Below the pieces are notes generated by a model, which worked only from the letters and a program-made list of their open reading frames with translations, ran no database searches and was not told the DNA's origin. A stretch of 64,000 bases of DNA, taken from positions 4,514 to 68,513 of the forward strand of contig CASFZR010000002.1 in the NCBI GenBank assembly GCA_949299185.1. The letters run 5' to 3'. Of the stretch, positions 4,614 through 48,383 are shown one piece after another. How positions within the stretch are numbered: the stretch's first letter is position 1; every line of letters starts with the position of its first letter. The position numbers and the translations under genes are program-made. Origin of the DNA: an uncultured Spirochaetales bacterium. Its GTDB lineage: Bacteria; Spirochaetota; Spirochaetia; Sphaerochaetales; Sphaerochaetaceae.

Positions 4614-6088
4614 AAAGCATCAAGGAAACCGTCAAGAAGCCTCAGAGACCTGTGAAGATCCTCCAGTTCGGAGAGGGTAACTTCCTCAGGGCATTCGTGG
4701 ATTGGATCGTGGACCTTCTCAACGAGAAGGGTGACTTCAATGGCAACGTGATGATGGTCCAGCCCCTCAAGAATGGCATGGGCGAGATGATCAACGACCA
4801 GAACGGCCTCTATACGACGGTACTCAGCGGTGTCGTGGACGGCAAGCCGGTCCAGGAGTTCAGGACGATCACGAGCGTAGAGGGATGCATCAATCCATTC
4901 ACCGAGTACGAGAAGTATATGGCGCAGGCGGAGAATCCTGACCTCAGGTTCATCATCTCCAACACCACCGAGGCCGGCATCGCGTACCACGAAGGAGACA
5001 AGCTTGATGACAAGCCGCAGATCTCATATCCGGGAAAGGTCTGTGCCTTCCTGTATAAGAGGTACAAGCACTTCAACGGTGCCGCGGACAAGGGCATCAT
5101 CGCCATCCCCTGCGAGCTTATAGACAAGAACGGAGACAACCTCAAGGCGATCGTCAAGAGATACGCCGATGAATGGGGCCTTGAGGATGGATTCAAGAGC
5201 TGGCTCGACAATGCCTGTGACTTCTGCAACAGCCTCGTCGATAGGATCGTCCCAGGATACCCCAGGAACGAAGCTGACAAGCTCTGCGAGGAGCTTGGCT
5301 ACAAGGACAACCTCCTGGACAAGGCTGAGCTTTTCCTGCTGTGGGTCATAGAGTGCCACGGAAAGACGCATGAGGACGAGCTTCCGACCGAGAAGGCCGG
5401 CGTGAACGTGATCTGGACCGATGACATGTCCTTCTATCGCACGCGCAAGGTACGCATCCTCAACGGCGCCCATACAATGTCCGTGCTTGCTGCCTATCAG
5501 ATGGGACTGAATACCGTCGAGGAGTGCATCAAGAGCCCGCTGATCTTCCCGATGATGAAGCGCGGCCTCTTCGAGGAGATCATCCCCTCGATGGATGGAG
5601 ACAAGAAGCAGCTTGAGGAGTATGCGGGAGATGTCCTCAACAGGTTCGCGAACCCATACATCGTCCACCTCTGCCTCTCCATCTCGCTCAACAGCGTCTC
5701 CAAGTTCAAGACACGCGACCTGCCATCGCTCACCGGCTACGTGAAGAAGGAAGGAAAGCTTCCTGTGGTGCTTCCGTTCTCTCTTGCCGCGCTCATCTCC
5801 TTCTATAACGGTACTGAGTACGAGGGACCGGCCCTCATCGGCAGCCGCGATGGTGAGAAGTATCTGATCAACGACAGCCCGGAGGTGCTTGAGAAGTTCG
5901 CATCGCTGTACAAGGCTGAGTATAAGGATACGGCGGACAAGGCCGCGAAGATCGCGCACGCCGTGCTTTCGGATGTCTCATGGTGGGGAGAGGACCTCAC
6001 GAGGATCGAGGGACTGGAGAAGACGATCACAGGACACCTTGAGACCATCTGGACCAAAGGCATGAAGGCTGCCGTCGAGAGCCTCTGA
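4610..6088 (+). CDS. uxaB: Altronate oxidoreductase (tagaturonate reductase), mannitol dehydrogenase family
   Basis: 492 aa. N-terminal KILQFGEGNFLRAFVDWIVD is the Rossmann motif typical of UxaB. Sits in an operon with uxaA and uxaC. Confidence 0.85.
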   Translation: MKSIKETVKKPQRPVKILQFGEGNFLRAFVDWIVDLLNEKGDFNGNVMMVQPLKNGMGEMINDQNGLYTTVLSGVVDGKPVQEFRTITSVEGCINPFTEYEKYMAQAENPDLRFIISNTTEAGIAYHEGDKLDDKPQISYPGKVCAFLYKRYKHFNGAADKGIIAIPCELIDKNGDNLKAIVKRYADEWGLEDGFKSWLDNACDFCNSLVDRIVPGYPRNEADKLCEELGYKDNLLDKAELFLLWVIECHGKTHEDELPTEKAGVNVIWTDDMSFYRTRKVRILNGAHTMSVLAAYQMGLNTVEECIKSPLIFPMMKRGLFEEIIPSMDGDKKQLEEYAGDVLNRFANPYIVHLCLSISLNSVSKFKTRDLPSLTGYVKKEGKLPVVLPFSLAALISFYNGTEYEGPALIGSRDGEKYLINDSPEVLEKFASLYKAEYKDTADKAAKIAHAVLSDVSWWGEDLTRIEGLEKTITGHLETIWTKGMKAAVESL

Positions 6089-44249: not shown

Positions 44250-44337
44250 GGAGAGATGTCCGAGTGGTTTAAGGTAGCTGCCTTGAAAGCAGCCGTGGCG
44301 CAAGTCACCGGGGGTTCGAATCCCTCTCTCTCCGCCA
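44250..44337 (+). tRNA. tRNA-Ser (anticodon UGA), CCA encoded
   Basis: Hand-folded. Acceptor GGAGAGA/TCTCTCC, anticodon stem GCTGC/GCAGC with loop CTTGAAA, long variable arm, T-loop GGTTCGAATCC. Confidence 0.9.
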
Positions 44338-44346
44338 TATTAGATT

Positions 44347-44436
44347 GGAGAGGTGCGAGAGAGGCCGAATCGGGCTCCCTGCTAAGGAGTTGACCTGGCA
44401 AACCCGGGTCCGGGGGTTCGAATCCCCCCCTCTCCG
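44347..44436 (+). tRNA. tRNA-Ser (anticodon GCU)
   Basis: Acceptor GGAGAGG/CCTCTCC, anticodon loop CTGCTAA, long variable arm, T-loop GGTTCGAATCC. Confidence 0.9.
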
Positions 44437-44441
44437 ATGAT

Positions 44442-44515
44442 GAGACCATAGCTCAGCTGGATAGAGCATCAGTTTGCGGAACTGAGGGTCGGAGGTTCGA
44501 ATCCTCTTGGTCTCG
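44442..44515 (+). tRNA. tRNA-Arg (anticodon GCG)
   Basis: Acceptor GAGACCA/TGGTCTC, D-arm GCTCAGCTGGATAGAGC, anticodon stem TCAGT/ACTGA with loop TTGCGGA, T-arm GGAGGTTCGAATCCTCT. Confidence 0.85.
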
Positions 44516-44523
44516 TACGCTTT

Positions 44524-44611
44524 GGAGAGATGTCCGAGTGGTCGAAGGAGCCGGACTCGAAATCCGGTGTAGTGCTCTGCATTACCGAGGGTTCGAATCC
44601 CTCTCTCTCCG
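44524..44611 (+). tRNA. tRNA-Ser (anticodon CGA)
   Basis: Acceptor GGAGAGA/TCTCTCC, anticodon stem CCGGA/TCCGG with loop CTCGAAA, long variable arm. Confidence 0.9.
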
Positions 44612-44622
44612 AATGACGCCCT

Positions 44623-44708
44623 GGAGAGGTGTCCGAGTGGTCGAAGGTGCACGATTGGAAGTCGTGTATGGTCAAAAGCCATCGGGGGTTCGAATCCCCC
44701 CCTCTCCG
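44623..44708 (+). tRNA. tRNA-Ser (anticodon GGA)
   Basis: Acceptor GGAGAGG/CCTCTCC, anticodon stem CACGA/TCGTG with loop TTGGAAG, long variable arm. Confidence 0.9.
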
Positions 44709-44712
44709 TATT

Positions 44713-44812
44713 CAGCAGCAGATCCCCGGCAATGAGCGCCGCCCAACCCCGTCAGGACAGGAATGTAGCAGCGGTAAGCGGTAAGCCATGTGACCGGGAC
44801 CATTTGCTGCTG
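44713..44812 (+). ncRNA. ffs: Signal recognition particle RNA, small (4.5S) type
   Basis: 100-nt rod. CAGCAGCA (44713-44720) pairs with TGCTGCTG (44805-44812), and CCCGG pairs with CCGGG. The apical GTCAGGACA-GGAA-TGTAGCAGC matches the conserved domain IV pattern (E. coli GUCAGGUCC-GGAA-GGAAGCAGC). Followed by TTTTCATTTT. Position upstream of dnaX-ybaB-recR as in Bacillus. Confidence 0.8.
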
Positions 44813-44859: not shown

Positions 44860-44888
44860 TTGACAGAAAGGCCGTGAGACATTATCGT
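44860..44888 (+). promoter_or_regulatory. Sigma70-like promoter of the XRE/ImmA-Fic cassette
   Basis: TTGACA (44860-44865), 17-nt spacer, TATCGT (44883-44888). Confidence 0.5.
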
Positions 44889-44917
44889 GATGTTCGATTT
44901 AAGAACATCTGATGTTG
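44889..44917 (+). promoter_or_regulatory. Candidate operator: GATGTTC-N7-GAACATC inverted repeat plus a third half-site GATGTTG
   Basis: Perfect 7-bp inverted repeat at 44889-44895 / 44903-44909, abutting the -10 box. Third half-site at 44911-44917. About 20 nt upstream of the XRE start. Confidence 0.5.
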
Positions 44918-44938
44918 ACTTTCTAATAAGGAGGAGCC

Positions 44939-45265
44939 ATGGATACGCATGATCGCCTTAGATTAGCACGGCAAAGACTATCACTTACCCAGGACTATGT
45001 GGCCTCCCTCCTGAATCTTCCAAGAACCGCCGTGGTCCAGATAGAAAGCGGAAAGAGAAAGCTGGCAAGTTCTGAGCTTGAGTCCTTATGCAGGATATAT
45101 GGCATATCAGCTGACTATGCATTAGGAATATCTCCTGATTCAGAAAGAACAAAGATGTATGCAAGAAGCATAGAGGCATTACCCGAAGAGGATCAGATGG
45201 AGATCATGAACCTGATTGAGTTCAAGAAGAAGCTTGCAAGGAAAAGAGAGGCGGCTAGGACGTGA
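44939..45265 (+). CDS. XRE-family HTH transcriptional regulator
   Basis: 108 aa. RLRLARQRLSLTQDYVASLLNLPRTAVVQIESGKRKL is an HTH_3 pattern. RBS AAGGAGGAG. GTGA overlap with the next ORF. Confidence 0.9.
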   Translation: MDTHDRLRLARQRLSLTQDYVASLLNLPRTAVVQIESGKRKLASSELESLCRIYGISADYALGISPDSERTKMYARSIEALPEEDQMEIMNLIEFKKKLARKREAART

Positions 45266-46203
45266 TCCTCGATAAATCATATCTTGCACTACATACAGGC
45301 TCAGCGGAAGAGCTTGCAGATGCTTTCTCTGCCATGGTATTCAAAGGAAAAGAACGCTCTTTCCCAATCAATCCATTTGATGCCCTTACCTTACTTGATA
45401 TTCCCTTCGTGTTTGCCAAGTTGCGGAAATTAGAAGGATTGCTGATTGCTGATAAGGATGATTCCCTTCCAGCTATGATAGCTATAAATTCCAAAAGGCC
45501 CATACAGAGACAGCGATATACTTGTGCCCATGAAATCTGCCACTTCATAAAGGATGTCGGATCATATGATCCATATTCCTGCACGGCAGGGTCCAAGATA
45601 TATGTTGAAAGATTCGCAGAGAATTTCGCTGCCGCTTTCCTGATGCCACGGGATGAGATAATAAGACAGGCAAGAATATACGAGCAGAAGCTTTATCCTG
45701 ACGATATATTACGCATTGCAGAATACTTCGGAACGAGCTATCAAGCCTGCCGTATAAGAATCAGGCAATGCATCCCCAAGAAGCTTCGCGATGATTATGT
45801 ATATGATTCATACAAACCTGCAATAAGGAGGGAGGAATTAGGCTTCAATGACACGTCATTATATACGATGACGCTTGATTCATGGACCCTCGCGTGGCCT
45901 GAAACGGCTGAAACACACGCAGCCTATGTGTTCAAGAATAATTACATCTATAACGATGCCAGGATGGAAGGCATAGACATAGATGAAGAAGAAGTCGCGA
46001 CAATCGTTACGGATCTACGATTAAAAGCACAAGAAAGCATATATTGTGACGGGAATCATGCAGCTTTATCGGAAATAGCCGGACATTCCCTGCTTTACGA
46101 CTATATATTCAAGATATGCCATCAACCAAGCATAGATATCTATGCATTACTTGATTTGAATCGAATCCTGTTCTCTTGCGTTCCCTTCCCAGAATATGGA
46201 TGA
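45262..46203 (+). CDS. ImmA/IrrE (M78, COG2856) zinc metallopeptidase domain fused to the N-terminal half of a Fic domain; ends at an in-frame TGA
   Basis: 313 aa. RYTCAHEICHF (HExxH at 45529-45543) and ERFAENFAAAFLMP are M78 motifs. The C-terminal part NDARMEGIDIDEEEV...LLDLNRILF is the Fic N-terminal helices, including an inhibitory-helix-like xxxxEG motif. Confidence 0.8.
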   Translation: MILDKSYLALHTGSAEELADAFSAMVFKGKERSFPINPFDALTLLDIPFVFAKLRKLEGLLIADKDDSLPAMIAINSKRPIQRQRYTCAHEICHFIKDVGSYDPYSCTAGSKIYVERFAENFAAAFLMPRDEIIRQARIYEQKLYPDDILRIAEYFGTSYQACRIRIRQCIPKKLRDDYVYDSYKPAIRREELGFNDTSLYTMTLDSWTLAWPETAETHAAYVFKNNYIYNDARMEGIDIDEEEVATIVTDLRLKAQESIYCDGNHAALSEIAGHSLLYDYIFKICHQPSIDIYALLDLNRILFSCVPFPEYG

Positions 46204-46266
46204 AGGACAAGGATACAGAACACGGCTGTCATCGGAGCTAAATTCGAAACAGTAGACTACCAAGAC

Positions 46267-46608
46267 GTGATGAGATCGCTTATTACCCTCAATGAGGTTA
46301 TTGGACACCTAGAGAAAAATCATGATTCCATGCCTAAATCAGAAATAGTCAGGGCTATAGCCGACATCCATCATAAGCTGACAGTCATCCATCCATTCCC
46401 TGATGGAAACGGCAGGACAATCAGGGCTTTTACGAATCTACTATTCCTTCGTTATGGAATCCCTCCTATTTACATAAGGACAGAAACAAAGAAAGAATAC
46501 ATCAACGCATTAAGCAAGGCAGATACAGGCACTGGAATAGATAGCCTATACTCATTGATGCTTCAGCTTATCTTCAAGAGCCATGCCGAATTCATGAGCA
46601 TCCAATGA
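46267..46608 (+). CDS. Fic-domain catalytic core fragment, in frame with the upstream ORF (possible pseudogene fragment or separately translated product)
   Basis: Canonical Fic motif HPFPDGNGRTIR at 46390-46425. Same reading frame as 45262..46203, with no stop other than the TGA at 46201-46203. The codons between (RTRIQNTAVIGAKFETVDYQDV) read like the Fic flap region. Confidence 0.75.
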   Translation: MMRSLITLNEVIGHLEKNHDSMPKSEIVRAIADIHHKLTVIHPFPDGNGRTIRAFTNLLFLRYGIPPIYIRTETKKEYINALSKADTGTGIDSLYSLMLQLIFKSHAEFMSIQ

Positions 46609-46667
46609 TCTTCACGGCGGTGTCAAAGGCTCCCCTTTCCATGCTATACTCCCTTAGTGGAGCAAAG

Positions 46668-48383
46668 ATGACAGAAGGCAGAAGCACATACGAGGTCACG
46701 GCAACTAGGAAGAGGCCCCAGGATTTCGATTTCCTGGTTGGTCAGGATTTCGTGGTCTCTACCCTGGAGAATGCCATAAGCGAGAACAGGATCGCCCATG
46801 CGTATCTGTTCTCAGGTCCGCGAGGCGTCGGCAAGACAAGCTCGGCGCGCCTTCTGGCAAAGGCCCTCAACTGCCAGCGCGGCATGAGCGCCCATCCCTG
46901 TGGAGTCTGTGACTCCTGCGTGGAGATCGCAAAGGGCAAGTCCGTTGATGTGATCGAGATCGATGGCGCCTCCAACACCAGCGTCAATGACATAAGGAAC
47001 ATCAAGGAAGAGATCATGTTCCCGCCTCAGTCATCGAGGTACAAGATCTACATCATCGATGAGGTACACATGCTCTCCACCTCGGCCTTCAATGCGCTTC
47101 TGAAGACGATAGAGGAACCACCGGAGTATATCATCTTCATCTTCGCGACGACTGAGCTGCAGAAGGTTCCCGCAACCATCCGCTCGCGCTGCCAGCAGTT
47201 CCGCTTCTCCCTTATAAGCGAGGAGCTGATAATGAAGTGCCTCAGAAGCGCTGCCGAAGACATCCACATGGAAGCGGATGAGGACGCGCTATTCTGGATC
47301 GCCAAGGAAGCGACGGGCTCGATGAGGGACGCATATACCCTCTTCGATCAGGTAGCCTCATTCTCCGGAGACCATATTACGCTGGACAAGATAAGGCAGA
47401 AGCTATCCATAGCCGGCTTCTCCGCGATAGCCTCGATCGTCGCCAAGACGCTCTCCGGAGAGACTGGCAAGGCCCTTGAGGAGATCGGAGGGCTATTCGA
47501 GGATGGGATTTCCCCTGAGCAGATCGTCAAGGATAGCGCGGAGTTCTTCAGGACCCTTCTCCTGTATAAGGAGGGAATCAGGCGCACGGACGTGCTTGGC
47601 TCCGCCATCAAGGATATCCCGGAGGATATCGTGAACGCCCTGACCAGAGAGCAGCTGGAAGCGGCCCTAAAGTCATTCCTGACGCTTTACAGGGAGCTAA
47701 GGTATTCTCTCTCTCCCCGCTTTGAGATAGAGCTTCTATACTCACGCCTCTCATCACTTCCGCTGCTTGCGACACCCGATGTGCTGATGAAGAAGCTCGA
47801 GGACCTGAAGAACGGGGTCGCGGAAGGCAGCGTGGTGATAAGCCATAAGGCAAAGGCGGCTCCTGTGCAGATACAGGCGGCACGGACGGAGGCAACCGCG
47901 CCTCCACAGCCCGCTTACGAGGCAGAGCCAGCCGAAGAAGAGGAAGAAGCCTCGGAGGAGGAAGAGGAGCCGGGGCAACGAGGGCCTCTTTCCCTTGATG
48001 ATATCCCCGCGATAGCAGAATCGCTCCTGAAGATGGGAAAGAGGGCCGAATCAAGATACGTCTCGGATATAGAGGCAATAGAGGAGAATGATGACGGAAC
48101 CTTCTCCTTGCTGCTATCAAAGCCCCTCGCGTTCAACAGCCTGAAGAACGCGGAGAAGGATCTGCAGAAGGCCATCGCCTCGGCAACGGGGGAAGGCTAC
48201 ATGATAAGACTCCGCCTCAAGGAACAGAGGGACCATGCCGACGAGGGCTTCTCGCCGGAGATGAGGAAGCTCAAGGCCTTCTTCGGAGGCCAGCTGGTAC
48301 GCAAGGACGGAGCCGTGACGGAGGAAGACAGGGAAGATGAATATATCACCTTTAGAAATGATGAAGAGGATCAGTTCTCTTGA
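46668..48383 (+). CDS. dnaX: DNA polymerase III subunit gamma/tau
   Basis: Start trimmed to MTEGRSTYEV (ATG 46668, RBS GGAG). GPRGVGKTSSARLLAKALNC, zinc module CGVCDSC, IIDEVHMLS. Acidic low-complexity C-terminal region. Confidence 0.95.
   Translation: MTEGRSTYEVTATRKRPQDFDFLVGQDFVVSTLENAISENRIAHAYLFSGPRGVGKTSSARLLAKALNCQRGMSAHPCGVCDSCVEIAKGKSVDVIEIDGASNTSVNDIRNIKEEIMFPPQSSRYKIYIIDEVHMLSTSAFNALLKTIEEPPEYIIFIFATTELQKVPATIRSRCQQFRFSLISEELIMKCLRSAAEDIHMEADEDALFWIAKEATGSMRDAYTLFDQVASFSGDHITLDKIRQKLSIAGFSAIASIVAKTLSGETGKALEEIGGLFEDGISPEQIVKDSAEFFRTLLLYKEGIRRTDVLGSAIKDIPEDIVNALTREQLEAALKSFLTLYRELRYSLSPRFEIELLYSRLSSLPLLATPDVLMKKLEDLKNGVAEGSVVISHKAKAAPVQIQAARTEATAPPQPAYEAEPAEEEEEASEEEEEPGQRGPLSLDDIPAIAESLLKMGKRAESRYVSDIEAIEENDDGTFSLLLSKPLAFNSLKNAEKDLQKAIASATGEGYMIRLRLKEQRDHADEGFSPEMRKLKAFFGGQLVRKDGAVTEEDREDEYITFRNDEEDQFS

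Follow-up and report, generated by a model that had tools for sequence, protein, structure and literature searches.

An in-frame TGA in the protease–Fic gene of a CapH/CapP-type cassette from an uncultured Spirochaetales bacterium

The repressor and the protease–Fic fusion

The 64,000-nucleotide stretch of DNA analysed here—referred to as the window throughout—belongs to contig CASFZR010000002.1 of an uncultured Spirochaetales bacterium (assembly GCA_949299185.1) and carries, between the gene for the signal recognition particle (SRP) RNA and dnaX, an inserted cassette of 1.8 kb with two genes, the first one coding for a small repressor and the second one for a zinc peptidase fused to a Fic domain. 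The latter, called here the protease–Fic gene, covers 448 codons (45262–46608) and is continuous apart from a single TGA, the origin and the consequences of which are the subject of the present article. The features of the cassette are listed in Table 1, together with the changes seen in the same gene in other assemblies.

Table 1 Features of the cassette and its borders in the window, followed by changes of the protease–Fic gene in other assemblies (positions are those of the window)
Feature	Position	Strand	Description or source
tRNA-Ser(GGA), left flank	44622–44709	+	ARAGORN
SRP (4.5S) RNA gene, left flank	44716–44812	+	Rfam RF00169, 62.8 bits vs gathering score 40
Promoter-like element and inverted repeat	44860–44917	+	TTGACA-17-TATCGT (44860–44888); perfect inverted repeat GATGTTC-N7-GAACATC (44889–44909)
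XRE-family helix-turn-helix (HTH) repressor, CapH-like	44939–45265	+	108 aa; Pfam HTH_3, E=8e-10; TGA stop overlaps the GTG of the next gene
Truncated protease–Fic product	45262–46203	+	313 aa: M78/ImmA/CapP-like zinc peptidase, linker, DARMEG, first Fic helices
Premature TGA	46201–46203	+	replaces codon 314 (GGA, Gly, in every other copy)
Untranslated Fic remainder	46204–46608	+	flap (R317, N320, V323, G325), HPFPDGNGRTIR, C-terminal helices, natural stop TGA 46606–46608
Right boundary of the cassette and probable true dnaX start	46610–46670	+	ATG 46668, GGAG 6 nt upstream
1-bp deletion	45894, codon 211		L029, L030
1-bp deletion in an A5 run	codon 352		L007, L008 and two further cluster members
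Breakpoint, only a possible lesion (may be a chimera)	after 46332, codon 357		L011
F379V, invariant Phe of the HPF motif	window-equivalent 46396, codon 379		L039
103-bp deletion	46420–46522, codons 387–421		L009
1-bp deletion	codon 417		L010
K419*	46516		L031, L032, L033

Concerning the repressor, its sequence matches the PADLOC model capH (E=9e-11, model positions 7–100 of 103), and the identical protein was found in 38 blocks of the public collection. PADLOC recognized the N-terminal half of the protease–Fic protein as capP (E=8e-21) and the C-terminal half as PDC-S04 and SoFic, with weaker matches to RmrA. Pfam assigned the piece upstream of the TGA to Peptidase_M78 (PF06114, E=3e-15) and the one downstream of it to Fic (PF02661, E=1e-10), while no NCBIfam model reached its cut-off. 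When only the 313-residue piece upstream of the TGA was used as the query, 55 proteins were retrieved, and almost every one is a single chain of 448–466 residues with both Pfam domains; 36 of these homologues, down to 26% identity, were aligned, and it is this alignment to which the residues described below as invariant refer. The peptidase half exhibits the zinc-peptidase motif HEICH at 45529–45543, with H90, E91 and H94 invariant. The Fic catalytic motif HxFx(D/E)GNGRxxR is matched by HPFPDGNGRTIR (46390–46425), which is left untranslated in the window and whose counterparts of H377, P378, F379, G382, N383, G384, R385 and R388 are invariant as well.

The AlphaFold2 model of the intact protein P0056, based on a 36-sequence alignment, has a predicted local distance difference test (pLDDT) of 84 and a predicted template modelling score (pTM) of 0.86, with low confidence confined to the flap (residues 315–330). 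Using Foldseek, the C-terminal half was found to resemble FICD/HYPE, Fic-1 from C. elegans, BT_2513 and the Fic protein from C. difficile (CdFic), the probability being 1.0 for FICD, BT_2513 and CdFic, and the N-terminal half matched CapP (7t5t), IrrE (3dti) and PprI (8sln).

A reading of the window made from the sequence alone, without database searches, had likened the segment DARMEG to the (S/T)xxxE(G/N) inhibitory-helix motif of class II Fic proteins, followed by a catalytic motif. This is in agreement with the alignment as far as the glutamate and its neighbour are concerned: E236 shows no variation and is followed by Gly (33 homologues) or Asn (three), the two being located ~140 residues ahead of the catalytic His. 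It does not apply to the Ser/Thr position, which is taken by Asp in 14 homologues and by Glu in the remaining 22. Profile alignments extend over the inhibitory helix in both FICD (chain position 125 onward) and CdFic (chain position 15 onward), and they place E236 at E234 of FICD and E35 of CdFic, the numbering being uncertain by ±2 positions. An intramolecular inhibitory helix, albeit not a fully canonical one, appears to be a reasonable assignment for this segment of the sequence.

The same pair of genes, with overlapping stop and start codons, is present at 55% identity in a relative from the genus (G006) and also in a set of homologues sharing 38% identity (the P0022 loci), where it is found among trp and ribosomal-protein genes and has convergent housekeeping genes as its neighbours. 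Since the pair recurs in both places, the module represents a self-contained two-gene unit. The architecture of the cassette is a variant of the known Xre/COG2856 (CapH/CapP-type) toxin modules, the Fic domain being fused to the peptidase; no published description of a fusion of CapP/ImmA/Peptidase_M78 with Fic was found in the literature searched.

The in-frame TGA and the codon it replaced

The reading of open reading frames (ORFs) bears out the claim that two of them—45262–46203, starting with GTG, and 46267–46608—share one frame and are parted by a single TGA, which is the only stop between them; the positions given earlier for DARMEG (45955–45972) and for the catalytic motif were also found to be correct. 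The stop had, on the other hand, been placed between an inhibitory-helix half and the catalytic core of the protein. The Pfam Fic domain covers residues 292–394 of the intact allele, and the stop is therefore situated within the Fic fold itself; translation of the window's allele ends after 313 residues, ahead of the flap and the catalytic loop.

With regard to the residue lost, the position of the stop is occupied by Gly (Gly314) in all 36 homologues, and not by an aromatic residue, as the sequence-only reading had expected. In the alignment with human FICD, the segment ..PEYG-G-RTR.. is paired with ..PVEA-G-RFR.., so that Gly314 represents the glycine of the FICD motif 'AGRFR'/'GRFR', the aromatic position of which corresponds to T316. 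The likeness of the codons after the stop to a Fic flap stands, with R317, N320, V323 and G325 invariant, the aromatic residue at the stop being the part to be abandoned. The nucleotide change has to be revised, too: the codon is GGA in 19 of 19 other DNA copies, and the mutation is a G-to-T transversion (GGA to TGA) rather than a TGG to TGA transition. It should be noted that all 36 homologues are single chains, and the possibility, raised earlier, that they end at this very place with a separate gene downstream is not what the family exhibits.

Exact-protein look-ups in the public assemblies gave 20 further copies of the locus. Position 46201 is T only in the window and in L005, the latter being Logan's separate assembly of the run ERR10610541, and it is G in the 19 other loci. 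Over the cassette (44860–46620), two of these, L003 and L004, each differ from the window solely at 46201, the intact allele P0056 being the conceptual product of the window except for residue 314. Since the flanks of L003 are 99.5% identical to those of the window, the intact allele is also present in the window's species. L006, with a 313-residue product identical to that of the window, was considered as a second TGA allele and rejected, because its product ends at the end of the contig, where GG is read at 46201–46202.

It is thus very probable that the TGA is a fresh, strain-specific nonsense mutation, and that the window's allele is Fic-null, i.e. a very young pseudogene or truncated gene, with the repressor and the peptidase half still being encoded. 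As an observation on the rest of the genome (2.2 Mb), seven Fic-domain ORFs score above the Pfam cut-off, the other six being uninterrupted.

Recurrent lesions and the alternative explanations

The window's allele is not alone in its species, taken here as the assemblies with flanks at least 99% identical; at least six alleles in which Fic has been disabled independently, this one included, are found there (Table 1). For four lesions, including that of the window, the ENA assembly and its Logan counterpart agree. Among ten assemblies sampled via the exact XRE protein—a choice unbiased for the position in the downstream gene and blind to broken XRE genes—the protease–Fic gene is broken in five, dnaX, ybaB and recR being called intact there. 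There is no lesion in the peptidase half, all five to seven being found at codon 211 or later (P=0.042–0.012, depending on the events counted). The gene thus appears to be at best weakly constrained in the population, with the Fic half lost repeatedly and a modest hint of the peptidase half being spared. The recurrent loss indicates that these hosts either can do without the Fic activity or pay a price for it. Among the three explanations offered from the sequence alone, that of a costly toxin gene recently turned into a pseudogene by a nonsense mutation is the one that gains support here, strengthened by the other independent knock-outs that this half of the gene has undergone within the species.

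Some further alleles deserve mention. L037 exhibits R397C (46450) at a conserved basic position; both L037 and L039 otherwise look intact, and both changes are missense ones in the Fic core. F379V of L039 and R397C of L037 may represent further loss-of-function alleles. Positions 1–1320 of L009 join the tRNA-Ser(GGA) to ABC-permease genes, and positions 5072–6964 of L011 run into a HAD-hydrolase region after 46332; neither of these foreign parts occurs in the genome of the window, and a rearrangement and a chimeric scaffold are indistinguishable in both cases. Truncated alleles have been seen in other clades, too: P0010 has a frameshift near residue 293, P0023 ends just before QIHPF and does so on five contigs, and the frame of P0050 is shifted near residue 398. 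Across the family, a broken Fic half seems to be a common occurrence, the positions in P0010, P0023 and P0050 being biased by their having been found with an N-terminal query.

Several points weigh against the interpretation of the TGA and of the companion lesions as given above. The restriction of the lesions to codon 211 and beyond is modestly significant, and some of the alleles were ascertained via an N-terminal query. The ratio of nonsynonymous to synonymous substitution rates (dN/dS) of ~0.53, from nine nonsynonymous and five synonymous changes, does not separate selection for loss from a lack of constraint, and two nonsense changes among 16 point changes are compatible with neutrality (P=0.17). 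L009, L010 and L011 are single contigs, the last of which may be chimeric. The reads behind L005 and those behind the genome of the window may be the same ones, and there is formal room for 46201 to be wrong in the consensus or mixed in the population. What is said of the cassette with regard to toxicity, target and trigger is, moreover, all taken over from its relatives. Positive selection for the loss of Fic was considered in this context and is not claimed, the counts of nonsense changes and indels fitting neutrality.

Selection could nevertheless be imagined to keep the truncated allele, if the 313-residue fragment and the repressor still had a function, be it in regulation or in immunity (anti-addiction) towards newly arriving intact cassettes. 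Such retention would be in line with the six to seven independent lesions all at codon 211 or later, with none in the peptidase domain or the XRE gene (P about 0.01–0.04), with the movement of the cassette between species, and with the repressor protein being identical across dozens of assemblies. The statistics are, however, weak and in part affected by ascertainment, the look-up with the exact XRE protein being unable to see broken XRE genes. Moreover, the lesion at codon 211 also removes the presumed inhibitory helix, so that a shared retained fragment beyond the peptidase does not follow, and one of the broken alleles has R130Q and P172H in the peptidase half. Retention by selection is consequently considered unlikely. 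The wider proposal—that the repeated destruction of the Fic half is an adaptive domestication, keeping the repressor and the peptidase/inhibitory fragment for anti-addiction immunity or as a stress regulator, with G314* as one of its forms—has to be regarded as quite unlikely.

As to whether the gene of the organism is in fact intact, with T at 46201 being an error of sequencing, assembly or consensus, the genome is a 74-contig assembly of the metagenome type and the T is carried by this assembly and one Logan contig only. Yet L005 and the window agree at every one of 2149 nt, T included; the same base has thus been obtained by two different assemblers and is not an artefact of one of them. 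Position 46201 is, in addition, not within a homopolymer, and several other lesions that differ from it are each backed by an ENA assembly and its Logan partner, so that broken alleles are real in the population. An error at this base is therefore regarded as distinctly improbable.

The deliberate decoding of the TGA—by near-cognate read-through, as selenocysteine, or as Gly according to the NCBI table 25—would yield the full-length protease–Fic protein in a controlled dose. UGA is the leakiest stop codon in bacteria, and the ancestral Gly coincides with the assignment of TGA in table 25, which is taken for a coincidence. The earlier statement that TGA is an ordinary stop holds true: in the genome (2.2 Mb, 74 contigs, 95% complete), it ends 820 of the 1265 ORFs of at least 300 codons (65%), and both genes of the operon end with it (XRE at 45263–45265, Fic at 46606–46608). 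ARAGORN found no tRNA with the UCA anticodon among the 43 tRNAs of this genome, the tRNA-Trp being CCA. Rfam gave neither a selenocysteine insertion sequence (SECIS) nor any further match in the vicinity of the stop (46190–46300), and for the 100 nt around and after it the predicted fold has no advantage over shuffled sequences (z=0.10). The stop is not conserved either, being absent from the 19 of 19 other copies with G and from all 36 homologues, and ordinary read-through would put Trp, Cys or Arg at the invariant Gly. P0001, which has Gly at this position and was considered as the read-through product of the window in the sense of table 25, was rejected; it also differs by T409A and is encoded on L001, a contig of another species, i.e. 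it is an intact relative. Decoding on purpose is consequently extremely improbable, and the dosage control by read-through proposed earlier finds no support in the tRNAs, the RNA families or the fold.

No more credible is a two-protein system resembling the class I Fic pairs, also put forward in the sequence-only reading, with an inhibitory-helix fragment and a catalytic fragment started at GTG 46267 or ATG 46270: the downstream ORF does retain the whole catalytic motif and is listed by gene callers as an ORF of 112 aa, but the cut inside the Fic fold would deprive the catalytic fragment, beginning at residue 336, of the helices 264–303 and the flap, the 63-nt untranslated gap has no Shine–Dalgarno sequence before either start (−0.6 and −0.5 kcal/mol, assuming a standard 16S tail, in comparison with −11.1 for the XRE start, −10.2 for the protease–Fic start and a window median of −3.3), no homologue is split at this place, and the remaining natural lesions interrupt the gene at very different positions, which fits decay rather than design. 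With no tRNA, SECIS, RNA structure or Shine–Dalgarno sequence to rely on, neither a control by read-through nor a designed two-protein split is supported, and the young nonsense pseudogene stands as the preferred explanation of the TGA.

Location, mobility and relation to known systems

The site between the SRP RNA gene and dnaX is empty in most of the relatives: in 11 of 13 from the genus, dnaX comes next at a distance of ~20–140 nt. An orthologue of the protease–Fic gene is present in only one of 36 other genus genomes. On the left side, the similarity to relatives ends ~10 nt past the SRP RNA; on the right side, the identity to L001 and L002, both from another species, falls from 46664 onward. 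In these two loci the flanks differ from the window by 16% and the cassette, in the same gap (window 44880–46610), by 0.23–0.29%. Since a near-identical cassette thus occupies the same gap between the SRP RNA gene and dnaX in diverged flanks, a recent horizontal transfer across species has taken place, probably by recombination through the conserved flanks.

As for the surroundings, the SRP RNA gene directly follows a cluster of five tRNA genes—Ser-UGA, Ser-GCU, Arg-GCG, Ser-CGA and Ser-GGA (window 44250–44812)—and in the closest genus relative sampled (L044, G009:C11; 1737–3194) it is a large membrane sensor-like ORF, and not dnaX or the cassette, that is found after the SRP RNA. The promoter-like element and the inverted repeat ahead of the repressor gene form a putative autoregulated operator of the cassette; promoter-like matches show no enrichment over shuffled sequences. 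Single-base differences within this putative operator are seen in L042 (44895) and in L001 and L002 (44911), one of them in the inverted repeat and the other in an adjacent third half-site. At the opposite end, a long dnaX ORF from ATG 46605 overlaps the Fic stop, has no Shine–Dalgarno sequence, and is aligned with the dnaX of relatives only from residue 12–28, the ATG 46668 being the more likely start.

In the CapH/CapP system, an XRE repressor is cleaved upon DNA damage by a zinc peptidase of the COG2856/M78 type, and the system is related to ImmR/ImmA of ICEBs1 and DdrO/IrrE-PprI of Deinococcus (10.1101/2022.04.27.489752; PMC10904395). The cassette shares with it the small XRE repressor followed by an M78 peptidase with HExxH, the capH and capP matches and, putatively, a promoter with a palindromic operator upstream. 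Unlike CapP and IrrE, both of which bear a C-terminal GAF domain (10.1101/2022.04.27.489752), the protease–Fic protein has a Fic domain in its place. Also unlike CapH/CapP, the pair does not control a downstream immune operon; what is presumed to be the effector is part of the peptidase chain itself, and the next gene, dnaX, is a housekeeping one in conserved synteny. A second resemblance is to the Xre-COG2856-toxin modules, predicted as three-component toxin–antitoxin-like systems with RelE and PIN toxins, with which—and not with Fic—COG2856 is listed (Makarova et al. 2009, PMC2701414). These modules, as well as the Rosmer-type RmrA, likewise combine an Xre HTH protein, a COG2856 peptidase and a classical toxin fold, and they are small, mobile and sporadic. 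Their toxins, mostly RelE or PIN, have genes of their own, and peptidase and HTH domain frequently share one chain, whereas here the peptidase is fused to Fic and the HTH protein is separate.

Concerning the Fic domain, the layout of which is class-II-like, the closest matches in both sequence and fold are the class II proteins (FICD/HYPE, C. elegans Fic-1, C. difficile Fic, BT_2513 and SoFic), in common with which the family has the canonical HPFxDGNGRxxR, the flap G-x-x-R...V-x-G and, as placed by the profile alignments, the invariant Glu236-Gly/Asn237. It differs from them by Asp/Glu at the Ser/Thr of the (S/T)xxxE(G/N) motif and by an N-terminal partner that is a zinc peptidase and not a tetratricopeptide repeat (TPR), an HTH domain or a membrane anchor, the window's allele being, in addition, truncated ahead of the flap. 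In the class I pairs (VbhT/VbhA, FicT/FicA), a Fic AMP-transferase is also restrained by an inhibitory Glu helix in a toxin–antitoxin-like manner. There, the helix is found on a separate small antitoxin, whereas in the protease–Fic family the presumed one is on the same chain in all 36 homologues (448–466 aa); the stop in the window, cutting the Fic core itself, does not produce the class I arrangement.

The mechanism favoured here is modelled on ImmR/ImmA, DdrO/IrrE, CapH/CapP and the Xre-COG2856-toxin modules. The operon is probably kept silent by the CapH-like XRE protein, until a stress or phage signal would let the peptidase cleave this repressor; the Fic domain would be the effector, arresting growth by the AMPylation of some target in the cell.

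The stop itself is an ordinary young pseudogene, for which no special translation mechanism is required, and the locus is also a caution for annotation, since split ORFs of such a kind are pseudogenes and not two genes. The cassette and its alleles form a natural experiment, in which the former has recently moved between species of gut spirochaetes into the same gap. The repeated knock-out of the Fic half provides population-level evidence for Fic as the costly, toxin-like part of the module, and with both intact and null natural alleles at hand, the function of this architecture can be probed.

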